From an uncultured Ignavibacteriaceae bacterium (GTDB taxonomy: Bacteria > Bacteroidota > Ignavibacteria > UBA10030): DNA of 64,000 nucleotides. The stretch is taken from NCBI GenBank assembly GCA_964480945.1, contig CAYZRX010000002.1, positions 5,009 to 69,008 of the forward strand, written 5' to 3'. Under the pieces are notes generated by a model. The model ran no database searches and was not told where the DNA came from. It saw only the letters and a list, made by a program, of their open reading frames with translations. Of the stretch, positions 23,581-34,044 are shown piece after piece (position 1 is the first letter of the stretch; each line of letters starts with the position of its first letter). Position numbers and translations under genes: made by a program.

Positions 23581-24627
23581 TCACGCTTTCATCATCCGGG
23601 CGATCAGTTTGGCGACATGGTCAACCAACGGGATCAACTTTCCGTAGTCCATCCTCGTGGGTCCGATGATACCGACCCTCCCGGTGATGCCCTCGAGATC
23701 ATAGGTCGCCGACACAACACTGTATTCTCTTGCCTTCGAGTCTTTGTTTTCCTCTCCGATCGTGATCACGAAGTTCTTGTCCAGCTCCTCGTGCTTTTCG
23801 AGCAAATGGACAATGATGTCGTCGTTTTCAATGAGCTCGATGATGCTCCGGAAGTTCCTCGGGTCGATGAATTCAGGCTGCTCGATGATGTTCTGCGTCC
23901 CGGAAATATGGACTTTGTCACGGTCCTTCATATCATCGAACAATTGATCGACGGAGTCGATGAAGAGCCGGATCAGGCCGGTCCGCTCGTCCTGAACGTC
24001 TCGAGTCCGCTCGATAAACGTGTCACGAATCTCGCGGAGTGTCAACCCCGACAGTCGTTCGTTCAGGACTCGGCTGATATGCTCGAGATACTCGCGTTTG
24101 ATTTCGACGCCGACTTCCAGCATCAGGGTTTTCACAAGCCCGGAGCGAATCGAGATGACGACCAGCAATTTCGACGACGCGATCGGGATCAGCTCGAGCT
24201 TCTCAAAAACCCCGCTGCTGATGTGCGGTGATGAGACCACGCTGAGCTGCTTCGAAATTTTCCCCAGCAGTTTGGAGGTCTCGCGCAACAGTGAATCGGG
24301 GTCTGCCATTGTGGCAAGTTGCTGCTCGATCTCGACCTTCTCCCGCTCCGTGAGCTTCTGCATCTCCATCAGGAAATCGATGTAGTAGCGGTACCCAAGG
24401 TCCGTCGGCACCCGGCCGGCAGATGTGTGCGGGTGCGAGAGGTAGCCGAGATCCTCCAGGTCCGCCATAACGTTGCGGATTGTGGCGGGACTGAGCTGTG
24501 ACTCAAAGTGTCTGGAGATATAGCGAGATCCTACGGGGACGGCAGTCTGGATGAAATTGTAGACGACGTGCCGCAGGATGTCGCGCTCCCTGCCGTTCAA
24601 ACCTTCCGTTTTTGGTTGGCTGATCAT
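23581..24627 (-). CDS. hrcA: heat-inducible transcription repressor HrcA
   Basis: N-terminal RERDILRHVVYNFIQTAVPVGSRYIS winged helix. ATIRNVMADLEDLGYL. 348 aa. Confidence 0.9.
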   Translation of the reverse strand: MISQPKTEGLNGRERDILRHVVYNFIQTAVPVGSRYISRHFESQLSPATIRNVMADLEDLGYLSHPHTSAGRVPTDLGYRYYIDFLMEMQKLTEREKVEIEQQLATMADPDSLLRETSKLLGKISKQLSVVSSPHISSGVFEKLELIPIASSKLLVVISIRSGLVKTLMLEVGVEIKREYLEHISRVLNERLSGLTLREIRDTFIERTRDVQDERTGLIRLFIDSVDQLFDDMKDRDKVHISGTQNIIEQPEFIDPRNFRSIIELIENDDIIVHLLEKHEELDKNFVITIGEENKDSKAREYSVVSATYDLEGITGRVGIIGPTRMDYGKLIPLVDHVAKLIARMMKA

Positions 24628-25005
24628 CTCAAAAAACGCCTGATTTTCCGTTTAAAAATAAGACTTTTTGCATAGGTTGTCAAGGAAGCAGTTCTCGAAT
24701 GATCCAACGCTTCAGGATGGAATCGCGTTTCGATGATCTGAGGCGTCCTGGCAGCTAAAATGTCGCGCGACTCCCCGACGACACCACGAAATTGTCTTGA
24801 AGGGCCGTGTGCCTGCACGCACTCTGGACCGAGCGAGATCGACGACTTCCCTCCGACAGAGGATGCCGTGACGAATGCACATTGTCGTGCTTTGCAGACG
24901 ACGAAACCGTTCTGCAGTCCGGCGATCAGGTTGCATCGACGTTCATTTCTTGCTATCTTCATTGCCGCAGAGAGTGTTTCCTACCAGAAGGGTGAGAGGA
25001 GTTCG

Positions 25006-28668: not shown

Positions 28669-28897
28669 GATGCCTCGCGAAGATGGTGGATGGAGTTACG
28701 GCTGGTTTTCTGGGAATGAGAATAGCCCATTTGTCGGAAAGATGCAAGCCCCCAGCAGCCTTCCGAAGGTCTCCGCGTACAGCAAGGGGAACCTTCGGAA
28801 GGTTCTCGCGCAAAAAAAATCGGCACGTCCGTTGCCGAACGTGCCGAGACAAAGCATGCAGCTCCATCCCGTCAAGAAACGACAGGATGTCGCTACT

Positions 28898-31681
28898 TCA
28901 GGAACATCCTGACGTTGCTCCACATTGCATGCACTTGTAGCAGCTTCCGCTTCGAATCATGATGCTGCCGCATTCGTGGCACGGCGGGGCATCAGCCTGA
29001 GTCTGGAATACAACCTTCTCGTTTCGCTCAAAAGCGGATGATCCTCTCGAAAGCGGGGTGTCTGAACGGTATTTTGGAGGTTCAGAGAGGTCCCCAAACG
29101 CTGTCGTGGACGGCGCCGAGGAGGGAGCCTCGTCCTTCGGTAAGAACTTCAGCCCAAGCCAGCGGAAGATATAATCGCTGATGGACTTTGCAATCGGCAC
29201 CTCGGGGTTGTTCGTGAACCCTGAGGGCTCGTACCGGGCGTGGCTGAACTTGTCCACCAGCACTTTGAGCGGGACGCCATACTGGAGGGCGATCGAGATC
29301 GAGGTCGCGAAGGAATCCATCAGACCCGAGATCGTGGAGCCCTCTTTCGACATCGTGATGAACACTTCGCCCGGCATGCCGTCTTCGAACATCCCGACGG
29401 TGATGTAGCCCTCGTGGCCGGCAATGCTGAACTTGTGCGTGATCGACTTCCGCTCATCCGGAAGGCGCCGGCGTGCCGGATGGACCTTTGCATCCTTCTT
29501 GATGTCCATCGAGGTGCTCAGCGGCTGGGTCCGTTTGCAGCCATCCCGATAGACTGCGATGGCCTTCAGGCCGAGCCTCCAGGCCTCCATGTAAGCCTGC
29601 TGGATATCCTCCGGGGTCACTTCGGTCGGCATGTTGACCGTCTTGGAGATGGCGCCGGAGAGGAACGGCTGGACCGCTGCCATCATTTTGATGTGGCCCA
29701 TGTACTGGATGGAACGCTGGCCGTTTGCCGGCTTGAAAGCGCAGTCGAAAACAGGGAGGTGTTCCTCCTTCAGGTGCGGGGCTCCTTCGATCGTTTCGTT
29801 CTTGTCGATGTAGGCGATGACATGTTCAACCTGCTCGTCGTCGTAGCCGAGTTTTTTCAGTGCTTCAGGGACCGTCTGGTTGACGATCTTCATCAATCCG
29901 CCGCCGACGAGCTTCTTGTATTTCACAAGTGCAATGTCAGGCTCGACCCCCGTCGTATCGCAATCCATCATGAATCCTATGGTTCCGGTCGGAGCAAGCA
30001 CCGTCGTTTGAGAGTTGCGGATGCCGTGCTGCTTCCCGAGGCGCACGACCTCTTTCCAGGCATCGCTGGAGGCCTGCCAAAGGTCTGCCGGAACGAGGTC
30101 ACGGTCGATCCGTTCTGCGTGGATGCCGTGCTTCTGCATCACGTTCAGCATCGGCTCGCGGTTGATCGCAAAGCCTTTGAACGGCCCCTTCTCCTTGGCG
30201 ATGAGAGCCGACTGTCGATAGGCCTCGCCGCACATCAAAGAGGTGATCGCCGCTGCGTACGCCCGGCCCTCTTCACTATCGTAGGCGAATCCGCGCGCCA
30301 TGAGGAGCGCGCCGAGATTGGCATATCCGAGTCCGAGCGGGCGATAGTCGTAGCTGTTCTGAGTGATGGCGGGCGTCGGGTAGCTCGCGTTGTCAACCTC
30401 AATCTCCATTGCAGTGATTGTGACGTGAACGGCCCGCTGGAACGCTTCCGTATCGAATTCGCCATCCTCCCGCCGGAACTTCATAAGGTTCAATGACGCG
30501 AGGTTGCAGGCAGTATCGTCGAGGAACATGTACTCGCTGCAAGGATTGGAGGCATTGATGGGAGCCGTCGTGGGGCATGTGTGCCAGCTGTTGACGGTCG
30601 TGTGGTACTGCATCCCCGGGTCGCCGCAGACCCACGCTGCCTCGGCGATTTGCCGCATCATGTCGCGGGCACGGTACTTCTCCATGGGCTTGCCGGTGGT
30701 GATCGCTTTCGTCACCCACTCCTTGTCTTCGTGGACTGCTTTCATGAATTCATCGGTCACGCGCACGGAGTGGTTCGCATTCTGGTAAGCGATGGAATCG
30801 TACGCGCCCCCGGGAATATTGAACCCGCCGTCGAATCCGGCGTCGATGAGCGACCACGCCTTCTTCTCTTCATCCGCCTTACAATTGATGAAATCGATGA
30901 TGTCCGGGTGATCCGCATTGAGGATCACCATCTTCGCGGCCCGGCGCGTCTTGCCGCCCGATTTGATGACGCCGGCGAACGCGTCAAAGCCTCTCATGAA
31001 CGAGACCGGCCCGGATGCTGTGCCGCCTCCCCCCAACGCTTCCTTTGAGGAGCGGAGCGTCGAGAGGTTCGACCCGGTTCCCGATCCCCACTTGAACAGC
31101 ATCCCCTCCGTTTTCGCGAGGGTCAGAATCGAGTCCATCGAGTCCTGGACGGAGTTGATGAAGCAGGCGGAGCACTGGGGATGCTTCTCGTTCCCCACGT
31201 TGAACCAGACGGGGCTGTTGAACGACATATACTGGTTGGCGAGGAGATAAACGAGCTCATCGTAGAAGATGTCGGCGTCTTCCTGCGCGGCGAAGTAGCC
31301 GGATTCAAGACCCCAGGTATAGATCGTGCGCGCAACGCGCTCGATCAACTGCTTGACGCTGTGCTCGCGCTCCGGTGTTCCGAGCGTCCCGTGAAAGTAC
31401 TTGGAGACCACGACGTTCGTCGCTGTCATCGACCACGACTTGGGAATCTCTACATCCTTCTGCTCGAAAATCTTCTCTCCCTTTTCGTTCGTGATGACTG
31501 CCGTACGAAGCTCCCATTCGATCTGATCGAACGGGTGGACCCCGGATTTCGTCAAGTATCGCTCGAACTTCAGTCCCCGAGGCTCGATGGACTGGTTCGA
31601 GCGCTCGGATTCTACCGGAGTCGGCGTCGCGACCTTTTCAAGCATAGCGCTCTCCTTGCTGTCGATAACGGCTTTAGACAT
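28898..31681 (-). CDS. nrdJ: adenosylcobalamin-dependent ribonucleoside-diphosphate reductase (class II)
   Basis: 927 aa. Catalytic core NPCSEY...C. Typical class II C-terminal zinc ribbon CHECGS...CYKCMQCG. Confidence 0.9.
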   Translation of the reverse strand: MSKAVIDSKESAMLEKVATPTPVESERSNQSIEPRGLKFERYLTKSGVHPFDQIEWELRTAVITNEKGEKIFEQKDVEIPKSWSMTATNVVVSKYFHGTLGTPEREHSVKQLIERVARTIYTWGLESGYFAAQEDADIFYDELVYLLANQYMSFNSPVWFNVGNEKHPQCSACFINSVQDSMDSILTLAKTEGMLFKWGSGTGSNLSTLRSSKEALGGGGTASGPVSFMRGFDAFAGVIKSGGKTRRAAKMVILNADHPDIIDFINCKADEEKKAWSLIDAGFDGGFNIPGGAYDSIAYQNANHSVRVTDEFMKAVHEDKEWVTKAITTGKPMEKYRARDMMRQIAEAAWVCGDPGMQYHTTVNSWHTCPTTAPINASNPCSEYMFLDDTACNLASLNLMKFRREDGEFDTEAFQRAVHVTITAMEIEVDNASYPTPAITQNSYDYRPLGLGYANLGALLMARGFAYDSEEGRAYAAAITSLMCGEAYRQSALIAKEKGPFKGFAINREPMLNVMQKHGIHAERIDRDLVPADLWQASSDAWKEVVRLGKQHGIRNSQTTVLAPTGTIGFMMDCDTTGVEPDIALVKYKKLVGGGLMKIVNQTVPEALKKLGYDDEQVEHVIAYIDKNETIEGAPHLKEEHLPVFDCAFKPANGQRSIQYMGHIKMMAAVQPFLSGAISKTVNMPTEVTPEDIQQAYMEAWRLGLKAIAVYRDGCKRTQPLSTSMDIKKDAKVHPARRRLPDERKSITHKFSIAGHEGYITVGMFEDGMPGEVFITMSKEGSTISGLMDSFATSISIALQYGVPLKVLVDKFSHARYEPSGFTNNPEVPIAKSISDYIFRWLGLKFLPKDEAPSSAPSTTAFGDLSEPPKYRSDTPLSRGSSAFERNEKVVFQTQADAPPCHECGSIMIRSGSCYKCMQCGATSGCS

Positions 31682-32226
31682 GGCTGTAGACTAAGCTCTA
31701 AAGAAATACCATCCGCTGGCAGGCTGGCACCTGCCACAGATAGACAATTGTCAAAGTATTAAGCGGGTAGACCCCTCTCGATCGGTGTGAGCGCTTGCTG
31801 GAGCTAGCGTTGCACCCCTGTAGCACAGCGAAGCGTCCGCGAGGTAAAAAGAAAAAGCTCAGTTTTCAACAGCGCAACTGGGTGTCAATATAAGCGCTTG
31901 CGGGAGCTTTGTCAAGTTAAAATTTAGAGGATAACAACTACGCTCATAATTTAACTTGACATAACTTTCATGAAAAGGGCGACGTTAAAAAAATCCGCAC
32001 GCATTTCATCGGCGACTTTTTTGTCGTGTTAACTGACGACACCGCACGAGAGTCAACTCGCTCTGCGCCAGCTATTCCATGTGAGCACGCGTTCGCCAGC
32101 GGCCATCAGCGCGAGCGTTGACCAGTCGGCCGGTCACGGGATTCTTTCTCCTTGCATCTCGTGGAAGCGTTCGCTTAATTTGTCCAGTTTTTCCTGCCCG
32201 CACATCACGAGCCAAGGAGTTCACGT

Positions 32227-34044
32227 ATGTCAGTTGCTGTTGACTTTTCGACTATACCCGAAATGTTCGACAGAATCACGACAAAGTACGCGAGCGAGCA
32301 ACGACCGATGTTGATGCACAAGGTCGACAAGCGTTATCGGGGCATCTCTTTCTCCGAGTACCGAAGGAACGTCGAGCTCTTCGCTCTTGGTCTTGCCTCT
32401 TTGGGAGTGATGAAAGAGGACAAAGTCGCGATCATCTCCGAGAATCGGCCCGAGTGGATTGTTGCCGACATGGCAATCGTAACGCTCGGAGCCGTTGACG
32501 TTCCCATCTATCCGACCCTGACGCCGAAACAAATCGAATTTATATTCAAGGACGCCGGCGTGAAACTCGCTGTCGTCTCCAACTCCCTCCAGCTGGGAAA
32601 GGTGTTGAAGATGAGAGGCGGGCTGAAGACGCTGCGGAACATCATTCTCATGAATGAGAAAAGCGAGCCTGGAAACAGTAGGATTCTCAGCTACGCGGAC
32701 CTTTATGCCAAGGGGGAGGAGTACGAAAAACTGCATCCGACCTACTTTCGAGAACTACTCTCGAAGGCCAGGCCGGATGGCCTTGTGACGATCATCTACA
32801 CGTCCGGCACGACGGGAAATCCGAAGGGGGTCATGCTCACCCACAACAACCTCGTCACCAACATCAAGTCGTCGGCGGATATCATCCCGCTTACCTACCA
32901 GGATACCCTCCTCTCGTTTCTGCCGCTCTGCCACTCGTTCGAACGGATGGCAGGGTACTACACTGCCATGGCGTGCGGAGCGACCGTTGCCTACGCTGAA
33001 AGCGCCGAGACCGTTGGGGACAACCTGCTCGAAGTTCATCCGACCGTCGTGACGACGGTGCCGAGGCTCTTTGAAAGGATCTACAGCCGATTGATGAAAC
33101 AGGTTGATAGCAGCCCGGTCCCGCGGCAGAAGATCTTTCATTGGGCGTTGAGTGTTGGAAGGGCGTATGCGACAGCGAAGAAAACCGGGGTCGTTTCTAC
33201 CATCCTGAAGGTGCAGCACACCGTTGCCGAGCGGCTTGTGTTCTCGAAGCTCCAACAGCGAACCGGCGGCCGCATTCGGTTCTTCGTGTCGGGCGGCGCC
33301 GCTCTCGTGAAAGAGCTCGGCGAGTTTTTCGAGGCCATGGGGATTACGATCATCGAAGGGTACGGGCTGACCGAAACTTCGCCTGTGCTGTCGGCCAACC
33401 GCATCGATGACTACAAATTCGGGACCGTCGGCAAGCCGATTCCTGGGGTGGAGATCAAGATCGCCGACGACGGGGAGATCCTCGCGAAGGGACCGAATAT
33501 CATGAAAGGTTACTACAACAACCCGCAGGCGACGGAGGAGGTAATTGACAAGGAGGGCTGGTTCCATACGGGCGACGTGGGAATGTTCGATCCGCAAGGT
33601 CACCTCATGATCACCGATCGGAAGAAGCATCTCTTCGTCAGTTCGGGAGGAAAGAACATCGCGCCTCAGCCGATTGAGAACCTGTTTCTCCAGAGCAAGT
33701 ACATCGACCAATTCGTGCTCATCGGGGACGGCAAGATGTTCCTCAGCGCTCTGATCGTGCCCGAGTTTGAGAACCTGAAGGAGTACGCAAAAAAGCTCGG
33801 GATCGGTTTCTCAGCCGAAAGCGACCTGACGCAGGTCGACGACATACGTAAGCTGTACGACAAGGAGATCCAAGCTCTTCAGAAGGACCTCCCGACGTAT
33901 GAGAGGGTTCGTCGCTTTGAGCTTCTGCCCGGGCAGCTGACGGTCGAAAACGGGGAGATCACCCCGACGCTGAAGGTCCGGCGCAGGGTGGTGGAGACGA
34001 AGTACGCCGCCCTCATCGATCGGATGTACCAGCACGTCAAGTAG
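32227..34044 (+). CDS. long-chain-fatty-acid--CoA ligase (AMP-dependent synthetase)
   Basis: AMP-binding motif IIYTSGTTGNPKGVMLTHNN. YGLTETSP. GWFHTGD. Confidence 0.85.
   Translation: MSVAVDFSTIPEMFDRITTKYASEQRPMLMHKVDKRYRGISFSEYRRNVELFALGLASLGVMKEDKVAIISENRPEWIVADMAIVTLGAVDVPIYPTLTPKQIEFIFKDAGVKLAVVSNSLQLGKVLKMRGGLKTLRNIILMNEKSEPGNSRILSYADLYAKGEEYEKLHPTYFRELLSKARPDGLVTIIYTSGTTGNPKGVMLTHNNLVTNIKSSADIIPLTYQDTLLSFLPLCHSFERMAGYYTAMACGATVAYAESAETVGDNLLEVHPTVVTTVPRLFERIYSRLMKQVDSSPVPRQKIFHWALSVGRAYATAKKTGVVSTILKVQHTVAERLVFSKLQQRTGGRIRFFVSGGAALVKELGEFFEAMGITIIEGYGLTETSPVLSANRIDDYKFGTVGKPIPGVEIKIADDGEILAKGPNIMKGYYNNPQATEEVIDKEGWFHTGDVGMFDPQGHLMITDRKKHLFVSSGGKNIAPQPIENLFLQSKYIDQFVLIGDGKMFLSALIVPEFENLKEYAKKLGIGFSAESDLTQVDDIRKLYDKEIQALQKDLPTYERVRRFELLPGQLTVENGEITPTLKVRRRVVETKYAALIDRMYQHVK

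Follow-up and report, generated by a model that had tools for sequence, protein, structure and literature searches.

The window analysed here is a 64,000-nucleotide stretch of DNA from an uncultured Ignavibacteriaceae bacterium. Two divergent genes flank the region under study. According to Pfam and NCBIfam matches, the gene on the minus strand, nrdJ, encodes a class II B12-dependent ribonucleotide reductase (RNR), and its plus-strand neighbour encodes an AMP-binding acyl-CoA ligase; the domain matches thus confirm the names that a first-pass annotation, made from the bare sequence, had given to both genes. That annotation had read nrdJ from the ATG at 31681, which leaves a gap of 545 bp between the genes. 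We find that translation most likely starts at the ATG at 31645 instead. An AAGGAG sequence (31657-31652) is located 6 nt upstream of this ATG, in a Shine-Dalgarno (SD) region AAGGAGAG (31650-31657, minus strand) that is kept in all 12 aligned relatives. The ATG at 31681 is replaced by ATA or ATT in close relatives, the nrdJ gene calls of relatives (913-916 amino acids) all begin at the downstream Met, and the NCBIfam alignment of NrdJ runs from residue 23 onward, where the model is at position 10. A database protein identical to the NrdJ of the window, P0001 (927 amino acids), starts at the ATG at 31681. With the corrected start, the nrdJ coding sequence (28898-31645, minus strand), as matched by Pfam and NCBIfam, encodes 915 amino acids, and the control region between the divergent genes therefore extends to about 581 bp.

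This gap had been described as by far the largest and most AT-rich non-coding stretch of the window. It is indeed the largest, though by a narrow margin (545 ORF-free nucleotides versus 528 for the stretch at 24232-24759), and it is AT-rich only in a relative sense, with a GC content of 0.50 versus 0.58 for the window. The second-largest ORF-free gap (24232-24759, 528 nt) carries a strong promoter-like sequence of its own on the minus strand (TTGACA, 17 nt, TATTTT; 24683-24655).

A terminator scan revealed a canonical intrinsic terminator (28812-28847, minus strand; 12-bp stem followed by T8) 51 nt past the nrdJ stop codon, which makes nrdJ monocistronic; it is also an example of the canonical hairpin-plus-U terminators used by this organism. 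On the other side of the gap, the ligase has a proximal promoter on the plus strand (TTGCAT at 32152-32157, 17 nt, TTAATT; 32152-32181), which is kept in relatives wherever the ligase is intact, followed by an SD sequence (32214-32219) and the ATG at 32227. The segment 32027-32140 is an unconserved spacer, with a mean pairwise identity of 0.21-0.30 over 32033-32066, the part of it that falls within the 12-sequence alignment. In L171-L173 the ligase is broken into fragments (about 730-1900), and in L174-L176 it is down to a 63-amino-acid C-terminal remnant (1784-1987); the nrdJ leader and the boxes upstream of it are intact in both groups. The size of the gap is maintained even with the decayed ligases of these loci.

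For comparison, 160 nrdJ loci were taken from protein-guided scans of genome and metagenome collections, and close relatives were added by protein search and then by exact-protein look-ups. Those closest to the window come from uncultured bacteria that carry the label Ignavibacteriales, Ignavibacteriae or Bacteroidota. The set compared over the whole upstream region comprises 12 distinct sequences (the window, L082, L161, L164, L166, L167, L169, L170, L171, L174, L177 and L178), with the truncated L168 as an extra member; their NrdJ proteins are 82-93% identical to that of the window. Four-fold degenerate sites of nrdJ have an identity of 0.33-0.41 between the window and distant members, which is near saturation, and the unconserved upstream parts are at 0.21-0.39. 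Given this saturation, blocks that are still conserved are under selection; promoter blocks retain an identity of 0.75-0.94 and leader blocks one of 0.47-0.79.

The first-pass annotation had singled out four motifs in the gap: a hairpin TGGCAGG/CCTGCCA (31717-31736), a palindrome GACAATTGTC (31743-31752), a direct repeat (31789-31804 and 31892-31907) and a 12-bp inverted repeat (31910-31921 and 31950-31961). All four lie exactly at the positions given, and two of them, the hairpin and the inverted repeat, are conserved among the relatives.

One arm of the inverted repeat includes the -35 hexamer of a near-consensus sigma-70-type promoter of nrdJ, which consists of TTGACA (31915-31910), a spacer of 17 nt and TATATT (31892-31887) on the minus strand. 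Eleven of its 12 hexamer positions agree with the consensus, and in a 19-kb scan it was the top match. As the alignments show, both hexamers and their 17-nt spacing, which falls within the 17±1 bp expected of sigma-70 promoters, are identical in 14 distinct sequences, at orthologous positions. From the -10 hexamer to the ATG, every one of the 12 sequences of the set spans 232-242 nt. The block ACACCCAGTTGCGCC lies 3' of the promoter in the nrdJ sense. A further, short inverted repeat surrounds the -10 hexamer (31871-31907); it reads GCAAC..N18..GTTGC in L167-L178 and GTAAC..GTTAC in L001, L002 and L005, with an imperfect version (GCAAG..GTTGC) in the window. Chance may account for this repeat, or it may be an operator changing in concert.

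Three boxes mark the DNA around and upstream of the promoter. Box C (31907-31927, minus strand) combines an UP-like sequence AAATTTTAA with the -35 hexamer and forms one arm of the 12-bp inverted repeat, the other arm being box B, GTTATGTCAAGTTAAATTAT (31946-31965, minus strand). Both arms are kept in 11 of 12 sequences, the start-to-start distance from box B to the -35 hexamer is 46 bp in 12 of 12, with variable DNA in between, and the repeat can be extended to 17-nt arms that are 88% complementary. Box A, CGACAAAAAAGTCG (32013-32026, minus strand), is near-invariant, with one substitution (in L164) among the 12 sequences, at a distance of 62-65 bp to box B. It corresponds to no promoter hexamer and to no terminator, and the window contains no second close copy of it. 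We considered the inverted repeat as an RNA hairpin and rejected this reading. Its arms are invariant and show no covariation; in L082, where TTAAA has become CCAAA in one of them, the opposite arm has no matching change, and one arm is located 5' of the -10 hexamer. The inverted repeat is thus a feature of the DNA. Boxes A, B and C act at the level of the DNA, probably as operators or as an UP-type element for some factor. The promoter architecture reaches L081, L083 and L084 (76-80% NrdJ identity) and L181, where it is found without the 5' RNA domain described below.

Box B also has a TATAAT-like hexamer on the plus strand (CATAAT, 31945-31950; TATAAT in 8 of the 12 sequences) with TTTAGA (31923-31928) 16 nt upstream of it, and a weak divergent promoter at this place is possible. 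As a promoter of the ligase it was rejected because the ligase is preceded by a conserved proximal promoter of its own.

Transcription from the nrdJ promoter would start near 31880 and produce a leader RNA of about 235 nt (31646-31880, minus strand), whose 5' end is placed from the promoter. Comparison of the 12 sequences points to three helices in this RNA, P1, P2 and T. The 5' strand of P1, CCUC (31841-31844; CCCC in relatives), follows a U-rich tract and is 93.6% paired with a 3' strand GGGG (31775-31772). P2 (31790-31837) is a hairpin with a 5' arm at 31836-31826, a 3' arm at 31800-31791 and the apical loop AGGGGUGC, and T (31709-31743) is a hairpin of 14 bp; all are on the minus strand. 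Tested together on alignment A7 (209 columns, 12 sequences), P1, P2 and T have 91.6% of their cells paired, versus 39-45% when the partners are slid by 1-3 columns. Eleven pairs are changed on both sides, which was matched by 1 of 500 shuffles, and 30 cells are changed on both sides, matched by 0 of 500; these controls overstate significance, because the 12-13 distinct sequences have an effective number of 2.4. In the leader helices, G.U cells outnumber A.C cells by 38 to 7, so the strand that folds is the nrdJ-sense RNA.

The individual helices differ in the support that they receive. In P2, 7 of 10 pairs are changed on both sides. The distal P2 stems of L167, L169, L170, L171, L174 and L177 are unrelated in sequence, and P2 is in every distinct homologue a single hairpin closed at the same GACG/CGUY base. 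P1 (CCCC/GGGG) is a feasible helix that is invariant, and thus without covariation, in the 12 sequences. Nor was covariation seen for any of three candidate pairings of the apical loop of P2. Conservation is also strong outside the helices: the unpaired blocks UUUACCCCCGAGACG, the P2 apical loop and UCACACC..CGAGAGGGGUCUACC are conserved. The last of these (in the junction also CACACC..CGAGAGGGG), which includes the P1 3' strand and is the junction block seen in the alignments (31766-31790, minus strand), has a mean pairwise identity of 0.79 versus about 0.35 at neutral sites. On manual inspection, the idea that the CCCC-CGA-GA / GA-GGGG junction forms a K-turn was found to clash with the covarying base of P2 and was discarded; a leader peptide was discarded as well, the ATGs of the leader not being conserved. 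The predicted stability of the whole-leader fold does not exceed that of shuffled sequence (z -0.49).

The hairpin noticed in the first-pass annotation is the upper stem of T and is conserved with compensatory changes. Hairpin T as a whole, with its lower and upper stems, has 95.2% of its cells paired, versus 35-42% when slid, and 4 pairs changed on both sides. Its predicted free energy is -23.3 kcal/mol in the window (z -3.37) and -17 to -21.5 kcal/mol in relatives. Counted from the ATG, T always lies at about -100 to -60, with the conserved promoter upstream of it. Directly 3' of it lies a U-rich tract, UAUUUCUUU (31700-31708, minus strand), which is interrupted in the window; a U-rich tail follows T in every member, reading CUUUUUCUCU or UUUUUUCUCU, and CUUUUUCUC or UUUUUUCUC, in relatives. 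T thus has the features expected of a terminator or attenuator, namely a stable, GC-rich hairpin with a U-rich tract right behind it and a place between promoter and start codon. A search of all column pairs found no antiterminator competing with T, which persists in both modelled states. Pairing of the pyrimidine tail with the SD sequence is possible, but the complementarity is not specific.

When every pair of columns was scanned, just four helices with two or more covarying pairs emerged: the base of P2, its distal part, the upper stem of T and an alternative helix. The alternative helix pairs the sequence GCGCU at the 5' end of the RNA (31871-31875, minus strand) with 31795-31791 on the 3' strand of P2. 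It is 91.7% paired and has 2 covarying pairs, a score that was reached by 0 of 500 shuffles (subject to the same overstatement) and that is based on two or three evolutionary events; its C-G to U-A changes occur at one pair in L174, L177 and L178 and at another in the window. The alternative helix competes with the base of P2, so that the two are mutually exclusive, and does not compete with T. Column 97, moreover, covaries with either partner open to it, so the pattern is the one expected of a conformational switch. The alternative helix thus hints at such a switch; it has 5 bp, and its predicted cost is 5-15 kcal/mol above P2.

The remaining two motifs of the first-pass annotation are present and not conserved. 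The palindrome occurs in the window and L164 only and, going by these alignments, is a chance sequence that overlaps the foot of T. The direct repeat has 15 of 16 positions identical in the window; by our own count the match falls to 10-11 of 16 in relatives at 92% NrdJ identity and to 7 of 16 at 87%. As judged from these counts, the repeat is a coincidence of two elements that are unrelated, the promoter spacer (GCAAsCGC) and the P2 3' strand. Two window-specific substitutions sharpen it, one of which supplies the compensating base in the alternative helix. The proposal that the motifs are binding sites of a regulator or else a small structured RNA was right in part on both counts, for different parts of the region: the RNA alternative holds for the hairpin, as part of a covarying nrdJ leader, and the binding-site alternative for the inverted repeat, as promoter or operator DNA with the nrdJ -35 hexamer in one arm.

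We analysed the distribution of the leader with a covariance model, R1, and an nhmmer profile. Both match only the 12 seeds and L168, with one match per locus, directly upstream of nrdJ. Neither finds the same leader in the other nrdJ loci (about 160) or elsewhere in the window, and a search of viral contigs did not yield it either. In a sister subclade (L181/L183, with a 919-amino-acid NrdJ; 2286-2503) the promoter and a terminator-like hairpin with U6 are found at the same distance from the ATG, together with a different 5' domain, in which the same conserved 5' block takes part in an 11-bp long-range helix. In several more distant relatives (L001, L002, L081 and L084), a crude scan showed nrdJ leaders of 220-330 nt that also contain a hairpin with a U-rich tract behind it, differing from the one described here in position and sequence. 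As for known RNA families, Rfam 15 gave no match at gathering score in the 64-kb window, only two chance matches (E 6.8) in 31500-32400 at E<=10, and none in the leaders of nine relatives, cobalamin riboswitch included. The first-pass annotation had likewise been unable to match the region to a cobalamin riboswitch. In the literature we found no description of such an nrdJ leader.

RNRs set the supply of DNA precursors, and in most bacteria their genes are repressed by NrdR. The NrdR operator consists of two 16-bp boxes with conserved C4, A6, A8, T9, T11 and G13 (PMC13584703), spaced by 14-17 bp or 24-27 bp (PMC12051234). A scan of the whole 64-kb window with the NrdR consensus gave no match at up to 3 mismatches. 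A scan for the conserved positions gave a best box of 5/6 and a best pair of 9/12 in the window, with at least 9 reached in 69 of 200 shuffles; with all allowed spacings the best pair was still 9/12, the mode of the shuffles. The absence of a recognizable NrdR box, already noted in the first-pass annotation, extends beyond the window. Pair scores are 8-10/12, which is background, in all 26 related loci whose NrdJ identity is 70% or more. This contrasts with nrdJ loci at 69% identity or less (Acidobacteriota, Myxococcota and others), most of which carry canonical box pairs in the promoter: 35 of 40 score 10-12/12 and five score 8-9, and the outgroup controls L015 and L016 score 12/12. By this comparison, NrdR boxes are missing at nrdJ throughout the lineage.

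We estimate a probability of roughly 60% that the leader is a functional cis-regulatory RNA, and the best reading of the comparative data is that it represents a lineage-specific, undescribed attenuator or riboswitch-like element. The gap would then be the control region of a monocistronic nrdJ, in which a transcript started near 31880 by the sigma-70-type promoter would carry a cis-acting leader of about 235 nt. The 5' domain of this leader would be made up of P2, the conserved unpaired blocks and the 5'-end helix that competes with the base of P2. T and its U-rich tract have the anatomy of an intrinsic terminator, with the SD sequence and the start codon about 50 nt further. The most likely mode of action would be premature termination at T, conditional on which state the 5' domain is in; in addition, the SD sequence may be masked by the pyrimidine tract. 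The 5' domain would be the sensor, of a small molecule (as in a riboswitch) or of an RNA-binding protein, and the conserved promoter, with a putative DNA-binding factor, would work alongside the leader. If the leader is functional in this sense, we would give a true metabolite-binding riboswitch a chance of one quarter to one third. We regard as rather unlikely the further-reaching proposal that, in this Ignavibacteria-like lineage, an RNA sensor has taken over from NrdR boxes at nrdJ. The leader would then be a new class of riboswitch that responds directly to the nucleotide pool, through a signal such as dATP/ATP, some other deoxynucleotide or a compound related to B12, with the P2/5'-end switch setting termination at T.

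It is conceivable, though in our judgement unlikely, that the hairpins are constitutive elements of mRNA stability, processing or pausing that sense nothing. We found no antiterminator, and T is predicted in all states, as such elements would have it, and the 5' untranslated region (UTR) of Pseudomonas aeruginosa nrdAB provides a precedent (PMC12528414). However, elements of this kind have no need for about 40 invariant unpaired nucleotides, for a conserved apical loop or for a covarying helix that is exclusive with P2. Control might also operate on the DNA only, through a transcription factor bound to boxes B, C and A, with the long 5' UTR being inert. Such control would account for the invariance or near-invariance of boxes A, B and C at spacings of 46 bp and 62-65 bp, for the overlap of one inverted-repeat arm with the -35 hexamer, and for the promoter architecture of L081, L083, L084 and L181, which have no such 5' RNA domain. 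It leaves unexplained, however, the compensatory changes in P2 and T, the G.U asymmetry and the conservation of leader blocks versus neutral spacers, and we hold it to be quite improbable. Because DNA operators and a leader RNA can coexist, it is only the inertness of the UTR that these observations disfavour.

Two further accounts would place a small RNA in the gap. A divergent plus-strand RNA of about 66 nt, running from the box B hexamer (31945-31950) to the U6 of box A (32017-32022), would give a role to the conserved TATAAT/CATAAT with TTTAGA 16 nt upstream and to the constant distance to box A (65-68 nt). Its interior sequence, however, is unconserved, and neither a terminator hairpin nor a stable fold recurs consistently (z from +2.45 to -2.42; -6.6 kcal/mol in the window), which makes this RNA very improbable. 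Least probable of all the accounts considered is that the first 185 nt or so, from the transcription start to the U tract after T, form a trans-acting small RNA and that nrdJ is expressed by read-through only. A strong promoter, a structured RNA and a terminator-like hairpin with a U tract do follow each other in the order that this would require, but all matches to the element lie immediately 5' of nrdJ, at a fixed distance from the SD sequence.

As a cis-acting regulator of nrdJ, the leader can be compared with several known systems. It shares with NrdR and its paired boxes an RNR gene as target and, presumably, the same need to match the supply of dNTPs to demand; in contrast to NrdR operators, the boxes found here have other sequences and spacings, do not include an NrdR box pair, and are accompanied by a structured leader. 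With riboswitches built on a terminator platform it has in common a conserved structured domain at the 5' end, unpaired nucleotides that are conserved, a U tract behind a downstream hairpin and a strict tie to one gene. It differs from them in its narrow distribution, in having no match in Rfam and in that its sensor is putative. Riboswitches are known at RNR genes: cobalamin riboswitches occur at operons of B12-independent RNRs, and 2'-deoxyguanosine riboswitches at RNR genes in Mesoplasma. For a cobalamin OFF switch, a B12-dependent RNR such as NrdJ would be an unusual target. The nearest published functional analogue is the long nrdAB 5' UTR of P. aeruginosa, an RNR leader that lowers transcript level and stability, for which no ligand, no response to B12 and no defined element were found (PMC12528414). 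That leader belongs to another gene class and another phylum and has no sequence relationship to the one described here, for which comparison points to specific helices. In its rarity, its restriction to a lineage and its place upstream of a single gene, the nrdJ leader resembles Fibro-purF, an orphan leader motif which, in the outline given by its source, has a few tens of unique representatives at one gene in one lineage (PMC7668255); to the extent of that outline, Fibro-purF has an unrelated sequence and structure and another gene.

The hairpin-bearing nrdJ leaders of L001, L002, L081 and L084 hint that attenuation in the leader could be common at nrdJ among these bacteria. In the subclade of the window, nrdJ has a structured leader with a terminator-like hairpin in place of NrdR box pairs. 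Should this leader sense a metabolite, it would add a new class of riboswitch to an essential pathway and be a counterpart of NrdR made of RNA; binding of a protein would instead point to a new regulator of RNR.
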